A stretch of 64,000 nt of DNA from Chrysomallon squamiferum. Lineage: Eukaryota; Animalia; Mollusca. The notes below the pieces were generated by a model, which was not told where the DNA came from, did not search any database, and worked only from the letters and a program-made list of their open reading frames with translations. Position 1 is the stretch's first letter. Every line of letters begins with the position of its first letter. This document shows positions 43,901 to 46,900 of this stretch, in pieces. The stretch is taken from NCBI GenBank assembly GCA_012295275.1, contig CM022670.1, positions 22,630,001 to 22,694,000 on the forward strand, in the 5' to 3' direction. The translations under genes were made by a program, and so were the position numbers.

Positions 43901-46900
43901 ATTTTTGCCTCCATCGAATAACAACGCATCCGAAATCATCTTCTTTCATTTTTATTTACATTTAAAACATTTTTTTAAAAATTAACGTTTTAATTTATGC
44001 TTTCAGTCTGGAACATTGTTTAATATCTACAACATTTACCTAATGTTAAATAGTTCTTAAATTTATACAGTGAAATAAATGTCTTAGTGATAATCTGCAT
44101 AGTTGTAATTTAAATGACACAGAGTCATGAAATATTTAGAAATGTTAACATAAGAAAACCATCAATTTTAGTCAATATATATCAAAAGAAATTTAATATT
44201 ACTGTTTTATTGGATAGACACCGATATAAATGAAAAAAAATTACTAAATACATTGTATATTAGATGTATGCAGGATGTTATCAAGTTATTAACTTTATTT
44301 ATCTTTTAAGAACATATAATCTAAAAAGATTTTTTATAAATCAATATCAGACGTATGAGTATTTATATTATAATGGTTATCATACATTACAGACAGAGAG
44401 GCTGCATGAATAATAAAAATTAATCTTATTTGTTCACTAATTATCTTTTCATTTTTCTCAAAACGCATTTTAAAATTTTTGTTTTAATTAACCTGTGTGT
44501 GCCATGAAGCGTTTTTCCTTGGTTGACTGGGGACCAATGCTGTTACCTTTTGCATTTGAATTTGAACCTTATTTTTCCTGATTACCAGCTACATGACACA
44601 ACTTTGGTGTCCTGTCTTTCTTGTCACCAAAGCGACTGCTATTCTGTAGCTGGTTGAAATCGGGCCAAATTGAAGTAGTAACAGGCATTTGGTCCCCTTC
44701 AACCAGCTGTAGTTAGCATTCTTGTCACCAGATGGAGCACACAGAGAGATGAACATACTGACCTCAATTTTTTAACCCTAAAACTTATCTGGCACAGTGA
44801 GTATGAAATGTGTTTCAACAATTTAAGAAAAGAAAATTTAAAAACTGAAATATTTATAAATTCACATGATGTTGACAAAACATTAATTGAAAACAACATA
44901 TTAAATATTCTACAAAATCATTGATTTTTTTTCTCAAAATATTTAAAATTAAATGATATATATGTTGTTGTTTTTTTATCATATTATTCATCATATTCAC
45001 AGTGCATGCATGTGTTTCATTTTAGCCTTAAGTTGGCATCATGCAGTTCAGTATTTATGCAGAAAGCTATAAAATGTTAAAAAAATAGAGGGTATTCAAT
45101 GTTAATACTTTATATATGTATCATATATTAAAAGGAATACAAGGTCCACATCCTGATGATTCCAAAGAAATTACTATTAATTACTATTTAATACAAGAAA
45201 ATTACAAATACTCAAAGTTTAAAATAAGTTTGTTTTAGTGCTTCTTATGGGACAAAGAAGTTTTTTTTTGGTTTGTTTTTCCTTGTGGTTGGGGAAGATT
45301 TTGTGGGTGACAATGATATCAAAGAGAAGAACTTTTGCCATTCCATAACAAGTGTTATCCATTAGAAAACAGGAATTTGTTTTTTTTACGTACATTTTCT
45401 CAATAAACCGGTTGATAGCCTCTGTGTAGAAGACAGTAAAACAGGACTGATCTGACAAACCACTGTATCTCTGACCACTGAGAAACAGACCATTTATTAA
45501 TGTGGGTGTTAAGCTAACACTGATACAAAGACAATGAAAACAATATGTTTAGTCTGGAATACTGAATATGATGAAACCATTCAAAACTTAATACAATGGA
45601 AGAGAGAACGAGAACATGTTTTATTTTACAATACACTAATCACATTTTCAATCTATATAAGAATTAATGTCATGTAGCACTACATTTGGTTAAGATTCAT
45701 ACATATAATTAATCATGAAACCTGCTGTCACCCTGCAGTGAATTACCCAGTTCTGATCAGCAATAAGAGATCTCTCAGGCAGAAAAACACAAGCATTATC
45801 TATGACAAAATATTCACAGACATTGGTAAAACAGGATACTCACATCTTAGAAATACACAACATGATACAAAAATTAATTTATTCTAACTTCTTGGCTCAC
45901 TTCACTGGCTAACTACAGTTTTTAATGATAATTCTAAATAAACACAATATATACATTTTATGTTCTGTTTTTATCGCAATAAAACAAACAAAATATGACT
46001 ATAATGAAATGAGAGCAAATTTTCTGGTAAGAATAGCAACCATTCATTTGTGTATGTGTGTGTGTTGTGTATCATGACATTAGTCTGAATGATATATATA
46101 TATATATATATATCATTTAGACTAATGGTACAAATGTACATCCAAGTAAAACAATGAGTACCCAGCACGAAGGTAAGATGATCCAGGTAAAAGAAATGTA
46201 TGGAATTTCAGGTAAAGTTCTTGAGAACAGTTTGCAGTTTGGTTAAGTGATAACAGGTTCTATATTTAGTTATGGGAGATAGAATGTCAGTAGGCATGTG
46301 TGCTTCTGCCATGCAAATGAAAAGCATGCAAGTTTGATAACAGCAACAAAGGGCAAAGCTTCCTAAAAATCTCCAGATGCTTGAGATGAAATAACAAACC
46401 TTTCTCGAGAAATTAAGAGTTCTATTTCAGATCACTGAATTAAATGAACTGAACTGAAATGCTTATGCAAACAGATTATAAATTAGCTTGTGTTATTTTT
46501 ATAGAAATCTGTCTGTCATGAACTTAAATTTTGTTTATTATAATCTAGGATAATGGACAAATGATACATTCAGATTTAAAAACTTTCATTAATAATAACT
46601 TTTTTTTTCTTTTCTTTTTTTAATTATTGAGATAAATTGATTCAAGCATATTATTATTATGTAATATTCATTTTACTTCAGGACTGGATTCTCATGCACC
46701 TTTTATTCTGAATCTGAATGTAAAAATATGCAATTACCATGATTTTTTAAAATATATTTTATATTTTAAATTAGTAATGAATGATCTGATATTAAATAAA
46801 ATCCATCAATGAAATCCTGTTGTTTTTGTGGTTTGTTTTTATATTTTATGTGCATTATACTAACAGATGTAACTTATTTTTGCTATTTAATTATCTTACT

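Follow-up and report, generated by a model that had tools for sequence, protein, structure and literature searches.

In pri-miR-17~92, repression domains fold the primary transcript in such a way that Microprocessor is blocked at some members of the cluster, and cleavage by CPSF3/ISY1 relieves the block (PMC6928177, accessible part). C. elegans let-7 promotes its own maturation by binding to the let-7 primary transcript; nuclear miR-122 acts on pri-miR-21 and miR-709 on pri-miR-15a/16-1 (PMC5829740, accessible part). According to the accessible text of a 2026 review (PMC13686912), miR-1 and miR-133 oppose each other in muscle; that text deals with alternative splicing and neighbouring hairpins and does not list a built-in antisense copy. 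How co-transcribed microRNAs such as these two reach different amounts is a general question. A mir-1/mir-133 cluster lying antisense in a MIB1 intron is known from insects and vertebrates, and genes, order, strand and host, as given in the accessible part of that report, are all as at the present locus (PMC2500172). The locus differs in one respect: just upstream of pre-miR-133 it carries an inverted copy of the hairpin, a feature that is absent from all 43 further mir-133 loci studied, which comprise 26 distinct hairpins.

Like pri-miR-17~92, the locus contains a cis sequence predicted to form a fold that excludes the Drosha substrate. As far as the available text of that report goes, the block in pri-miR-17~92 is a higher-order fold, whereas here it would be a near full-length antisense copy of one pre-miRNA, both arms and loop included; release comes from CPSF3/ISY1 cleavage there and, as predicted, from the microRNA's own seed match here. 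Like let-7, the putative primary transcript has a conserved site complementary to the mature microRNA (44520-44537). The let-7 site lies at the 3' end of its transcript and the available text describes no competing fold, whereas the present site lies 150 nt upstream and forms the keystone helix. With miR-122 and miR-709 the locus would share the action of a mature microRNA on a primary transcript, but those two inhibit other microRNAs in the part of the report available, whereas self-activation is proposed here. By analogy, the element would combine a repression domain of the pri-miR-17~92 type with autoregulation of the let-7 type. An antisense copy beside mir-133 was not found described in the literature searched, which covered few subscription journals. 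With two defined folds, one trigger site as predicted and variants that occur naturally in six organisms, the 250-nt element is a compact, testable system. If the proposal is true, strand displacement would be a mechanism by which a microRNA promotes its own processing, and a duplication expected to disable a conserved microRNA could be retained as a regulator.

The inverted copy and its setting in the mib1 intron

The window, by which we mean the whole 64-kb stretch of DNA analysed, contains the gene mind bomb 1 (mib1) on the minus strand. One of its introns, about 34.8 kb long (18564-53341), houses miR-1 and miR-133 as a cluster in antisense orientation, with miR-1 lying 9.4 kb upstream of miR-133. 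For a single mib1 exon the best single-stretch match was abalone MIB1, at 94% over all 72 residues, and the next molluscs reached 82-89%; judged by this one exon, the animal is probably a gastropod. The mature miR-133 5' end is as in the pond-snail primers given in the accessible text of PMC6163488. We found no exact CArG box between 33500 and 46000, and because the DNA is AT-rich, matches to MEF2, E-box and TATA motifs around the cluster are uninformative. The features are as follows; capital letters denote coded organisms.

13961 to 61059, minus strand: coding exons of mib1, recognised by Pfam, a PDB match to human MIB1 and tblastn with abalone MIB1
35181 to 35255, plus strand: pre-miR-1, the cluster partner (Rfam RF00103); no inverted copy was found nearby
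44493 to 44609, plus strand: inverted (fold-back) copy, antisense arm of the proposed lock; its conserved part begins at 44494 in E and at 44528 in B, C and I
44493 to 44505, plus strand: outer clamp helix, 5' strand; partner 44732-44744 in both predicted states
44520 to 44537, plus strand: site complementary to mature miR-133; seed match 44529-44537, centre 44527-44528 unpaired, 3' pairing 44520-44526
44538 to 44546, plus strand: complement of the pre-miR terminal loop 44678-44687, with one bulge
44547 to 44576, plus strand: variable linker, in which most between-organism differences fall
44577 to 44593, plus strand: complement of the star (5') arm 44645-44664, followed in prefix folds; inner hairpin z -5.2
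44602 to 44632, plus strand: cap hairpin at the fold-back axis, closed in both predicted states
44618 to 44629, plus strand: 12-nt direct repeat, copy 1; without listed change in five relatives
44641 to 44715, plus strand: pre-miR-133 (Rfam RF00446, 66.3 bits against a gathering threshold of 55.5); mature strand at about 44688-44709
44719 to 44730, plus strand: 12-nt direct repeat, copy 2; broken in E, and pairing with 44594-44598 in the predicted open state
44732 to 44744, plus strand: outer clamp helix, 3' strand, close to the end of the conserved block

The original prediction described a 75-nt inverted copy upstream of the hairpin. The copy is present and is longer than that: 44493-44609 is an inverted copy of 44625-44744, pre-miR-133 included, about an axis at 44610-44624, and it reaches out to the helix 44493-44505/44732-44744. 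Global alignment of the reverse complement of 44493-44609 with 44625-44744 matched 82 of 142 columns, with a score of 69 that was reached by none of 2000 shuffles (maximum 31.5). The pre-miR against the inverted copy scores 56, and the background maximum among 2536 segments of the window was 36.5. We found no further copy of the element within the window, no Rfam match in the inverted copy on either strand, and no occurrence of its 18-nt core in viral contigs or in the 43 mir-133 loci. As had been proposed, the copy is not a second microRNA: folded alone, its two strands reach -9.6 and -9.1 kcal/mol (z +0.85 and +1.69). The 12-nt direct repeat said to flank the precursor is exact at 44618 and 44719, and a repeat as long arises in 4 of 2000 shuffles of the island.

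A fold-back (template-switch) inverted duplication of the hairpin with its flanks is the likely origin of the element, judging from this arrangement. Like other fold-back inverted duplications it consists of two arms around a short spacer; unlike them, it has been kept across lineages with its helices spared. Separately, 11 nt at 43799-43809, 820 nt upstream, are identical to 44622-44632 (the end of repeat copy 1 plus the cap strand); the identity may be coincidental, or the stretch may offer the cap strand another partner.

Predicted locked and native folds

The segment 44480-44760 folds with a z of -5.8, and none of 200 shuffles folds as well. All of the helices that had been named for the locked state appear in its minimum-energy fold: 44520-44526/44699-44705 and 44529-44537/44689-44697 on the mature arm, 44538-44546/44678-44687 (one bulge) on the terminal loop, 44577-44583/44658-44664 (one G-U) and 44584-44593/44645-44654 on the star arm, and the cap 44602-44609/44625-44632. 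For 44490-44748, the fold-back reaches -92.4 kcal/mol against -83.6 for the best fold that keeps the native hairpin. At 37 °C the ensemble gap favouring the lock comes to 10.4 kcal/mol, and at 4 °C to 7.6; it stays at 7-10 kcal/mol in four approximate alleles of relatives, and ranges from 6.9 to 10.4 across three parameter sets; the Langdon 2018 set supplied probabilities only. The proposal that the fold-back excludes the Drosha hairpin was thus reproduced in silico, with a probability of 0.000 for the native hairpin in all four energy models.

When other mir-133 loci were folded in context (L002, L029 and L040 omitted), 22 of 23 held their hairpin at P >0.6 and one at 0.32, compared with 0.0 in the window; the mir-1 hairpin in its context has a P of 0.87. 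In silico deletion of the element brings the native hairpin back (P 0.96), and none of 100 shuffled versions of the element locks it. Against the lock, models of this kind let a hairpin lose to whatever inverted copy lies beside it. Prefix folds predict that the star arm is caught by 44577-44593 before the mature arm has been made, and the inner hairpin (44577-44664) has about 30 pairs.

The direct repeat had been suggested as an alternative partner for the capping strand. The computed native state does not bear that role out: the cap helix is still closed there, and the downstream repeat copy has 44594-44598 as its partner instead of the capping strand.

Some of the other mir-133 loci have structures of their own. 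In L002 and L029 the star arm lies about 200-215 nt upstream of the mature strand, giving a very long structured loop; their high inverted scores were considered as possible copies and rejected, the loci being long-looped hairpins. In L016 the upstream and downstream flanks form a helix of about 19 pairs that encloses the mir-133 hairpin, and L019 has a second same-strand mir-133-like stretch downstream of its hairpin (score 56), possibly a tandem copy.

Conservation and the pattern of changes

A run index returned 20 runs with the whole or part of the stretch, from 9 coded organisms. The comparison covered seven runs of organisms other than A; the word shares, small or large, of D's X13-X15, F's X17, X7 (the second RNA run) and organism A's DNA runs do not enter the evidence. 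In five of the seven, a single contig spans both the element and the hairpin at about 92% identity, and the other two, X12 (D) and X19 (H), gave no record and are uninformative. The contigs span 44528-44738 (B, C, I), 44550-44738 (G) and 44494-44723 (E), with 7-12 other letters and 2-9 gap letters over 189-230 nt. The contigs of B, C and I extend for more than 1 kb, yet their flanks have no match at 80%, and no further piece of any relative's contig aligns at that level over about 300 nt on each side. Because they share their flank ends, B, C, G and I count as one lineage, which makes about three lineages in total. The carriers are probably a group of gastropod molluscs. A species-specific, neutrally decaying element, which the original prediction had named as the case against itself, is not what this comparison returned: the element is kept in five other organisms.

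The conserved block begins 161-195 nt before the mature strand, and its two ends coincide with the outer helix. As a control we used pairs of metagenome mir-133 loci (n = 43, 26 distinct hairpins), of which 43 of 325 pairs align over both arms. For 40 of these 43, the aligned part begins 45-64 nt ahead of the mature strand, and the remaining three are near-identical kin. Within 900 nt of the hairpin, neither an inverted copy nor a miR-133 seed match was found at any of the 43 loci. The element extends in relatives beyond the usual extent of a pre-miRNA and is absent from the 43 loci; it is therefore lineage-restricted and under constraint.

The listed changes upstream of the hairpin avoid paired positions, hitting 1 of 57 of these and 8 of 56 others (p 0.016); up to two differences per relative near contig ends are unlisted, and p becomes 0.12 if both fell in helices. 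At 44593, A>G in all five relatives turns an A-U pair into G-U, and at 44680, in the terminal loop, A>G in E turns U-A into U-G, so that both pairs are kept. On the miRNA (plus) strand the energy cost of these two core-helix changes is +0.5 and -0.1 kcal/mol; on the mib1 (minus) strand it is +2.4 and +4.0 kcal/mol. Being cheap on the plus strand and costly on the minus strand, they point to the RNA of the microRNA strand as the constrained molecule. The compensatory changes that had been looked for did not appear in two-sided form among the 10 listed substitutions, which include the two one-sided changes that keep pairs; one side of the pairing is the microRNA, which can hardly vary.

Other parts of the fold vary in how well they are kept. 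The middle helix 44551-44564 is not conserved. Pairs are removed by 44564 G>C and by a two-base loss in the miR-133 site, and two or three pairs are lost overall. A 7-nt stretch after 44549 occurs in all four relatives that cover it and pairs with the loop in E. The miR-133 seed match is unchanged in E and is present in B, C and I with at most two unlisted differences. This loss, in B, C and I, is at the centre of the site, while the seed side and six 3'-side pairs are kept, as read by eye from loose contig ends; in all alleles seen the site is unpaired opposite positions 11-13. The 5' strand of the outer clamp can likewise be discerned by eye in the loose ends of B, C and I, where changes keep pairs, G-U included. 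The stretch 44617-44671 has no listed change in the five relatives, and the cap hairpin has one, at 44616 in its loop (G and I). The break in direct-repeat copy 2 in E lies in a loose end after 44723.

These data bear on three other accounts of the element. It could be a neutral relic that looks conserved through the closeness of the organisms or through template-switch correction between the arms. The divergence of the organisms is undated, four of the five relatives are close kin, and the flanks are AT-rich and fast-changing. However, flanking sequence from these same contigs, over about 300 nt to either side, does not align at 80%, the imperfections of the arms are common to all six organisms and have not been erased, the changes avoid helices, and a copy predicted to abolish a conserved microRNA should be lost if neutral. 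We therefore hold a relic to be quite improbable. More improbable still is constraint on the other strand, where a structure in the mib1 pre-mRNA would mask a perfect miR-133 site, or on the DNA as an enhancer. The locus does lie within a mib1 intron, and the minus strand of the window's own sequence folds as well as the plus strand (-92.8 against -92.4 kcal/mol). Against this, it is only on the miRNA strand that pairing survives the helix changes, and animals with the same arrangement (PMC2500172, accessible part) have no copy in the loci examined.

A third account holds that the fold-back itself is useful, either shielding a long non-coding RNA from Drosha or serving as a Drosha, Dicer or ADAR substrate for other small RNAs. 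The locked state is favoured under every model, and this account would also fit the z of the inner hairpin and the unchanged 44617-44671. However, the inner stem is bulged several times, its 5' arm, at the place expected for a new seed, differs at 44593, 44594 and 44600, and A-to-G changes are absent from the RNA contig described below, in which minor variants would be dropped. We consider a useful fold-back product fairly unlikely.

The miR-133 site as a putative release point

If the fold-back is a lock, it must be possible to open it. Of 69 blocks of 9 nt held unpaired, six flip the fold; their starts lie between 44522 and 44532, and all lie over the seed match's run of G. The fold does not flip when the star-arm complement is blocked. 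Blocking the 9-nt seed match 44529-44537 restores the hairpin at P 0.82-0.98 in all four energy models. Of the bistable fold with release by self-binding that had been envisaged, the two states and the release by covering the miR-133 site therefore stand in silico, and the part assigned to the repeat does not. Since covering the seed match alone flips the fold, Argonaute loaded with miR-133 would be the simplest key; the seed helix is also the most GC-rich and strongest, so the flip by itself does not point to Argonaute.

The duplex of miR-133 with the site has an energy of -28.6 kcal/mol. Net of opening, binding is worth -7 kcal/mol once the fold is complete and -17 while the mature arm is still to be transcribed; we took binding as opening cost plus duplex, and RNAcofold, which cannot place a strand inside the outer clamp, showed no binding. 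To open just the seed takes 5-6 kcal/mol while the RNA is nascent and 16 once it is locked, so that the key must act early, within about 150 nt of transcription. With the pond-snail mature end, the site pairs with miR-133 positions 2-10 and 12-19 and is open at 11. Under the rules for Argonaute, an open position 11 would prevent slicing.

The same site could be all that is kept, as a miR-133 target in its own primary transcript that serves negative feedback or decay, the other pairing being left over from the duplication. A seed match with 3' pairing and an unpaired centre is what such a target would look like, and none of the 43 other loci has such a seed match within 900 nt of its hairpin. 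However, the complements of loop and star arm, the cap and the outer clamp are also conserved with their pairs, none of which a target site needs, and pairing ends near miRNA position 19. We regard a plain target site as unlikely.

Evidence from RNA is limited to one region. Two runs recorded as RNA contain 0.83 and 0.76 of the stretch's words. In one of them, from organism A, a single unstranded 387-nt contig (depth 3.8) covers 44420-44657 without joints. The contig is unstranded and lies inside the mib1 intron, and therefore cannot show co-transcription of element and hairpin; mib1 intron or DNA could explain it. A-to-I editing of the duplex, which had been put forward as a check, left no A-to-G change in the contig over 44420-44657, with the proviso that contigs drop minor variants. 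That the contig stops at 44657 might suggest splicing, a reading that was rejected because low depth accounts for the stop. The contig also has a one-base deletion at 44476, outside the conserved block.

RNA processing might instead remove the lock, if the transcript lost the element through splicing to a 3' site at 44632 or by starting further downstream; the two repeat copies would then be alternative acceptors on either side of the hairpin. Splice-site control of clustered microRNAs is known (PMC13686912, accessible part), the two copies of the repeat are rich in pyrimidines, each with an AG just after its end (44631-44632 and 44730-44731), and the unpaired cap loop is conserved. Against removal by splicing, the RNA contig runs unspliced through 44632 with no joint listed, and the upstream site is AAG, a weak 3' splice acceptor. 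We think such processing improbable. At the splice-like place of the downstream repeat, the AG is kept in E and in L007.

The element is real and conserved, and likely to be regulatory; its mechanism is predicted. Permanent locking is not compatible with a conserved microRNA, and in a neutral copy the helices would not be spared, so the simplest account is two states with a means of choosing between them. We accordingly lean, at slightly better than even, towards 44493-44609 being a cis lock on miR-133 processing with two such states, as the energy models suggest. We infer that both states occur in cells and that miR-133 output is thereby set apart from that of miR-1.

In the proposed sequence of events, an old fold-back duplication would have left an antisense copy of pre-miR-133 just upstream of the hairpin. 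During transcription, 44577-44593 would trap the star arm first and 44520-44546 the mature arm second, and the resulting long hairpin, held by a predicted margin of 7-10 kcal/mol, would go uncut by Drosha. A factor covering 44529-44537 would bring back the normal hairpin. That factor would most simply be Argonaute with miR-133, although an RNA-binding protein or a helicase would be equally able; with miR-133 as the key, the element would act as a threshold or positive-feedback switch. That miR-133-Argonaute is the key to the lock is a tentative suggestion of the modelling, which we would sooner doubt than assume. The same caution applies to the full proposal, which may hold but has the smaller share of our confidence: the antisense copy would lock pre-miR-133 by default, and miR-133-Argonaute on the nascent transcript would free the hairpin, giving a bistable, self-sustaining output uncoupled from miR-1 in a gastropod lineage.

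Other parts of the window drew attention in their own right. GC-rich non-coding islands lie in the mib1 intron near both microRNAs (34801-35150, 36001-36500, 38151-38450 and 42851-43500) and are candidates for a promoter, enhancers or exons of the primary transcript. A reading frame at 562-891 on the plus strand contains a partial RIO kinase domain (Pfam PF01163) and is an exon of the adjoining gene, and 11598-11957 is a tandem duplication of 179 bp whose copies are 90% alike.
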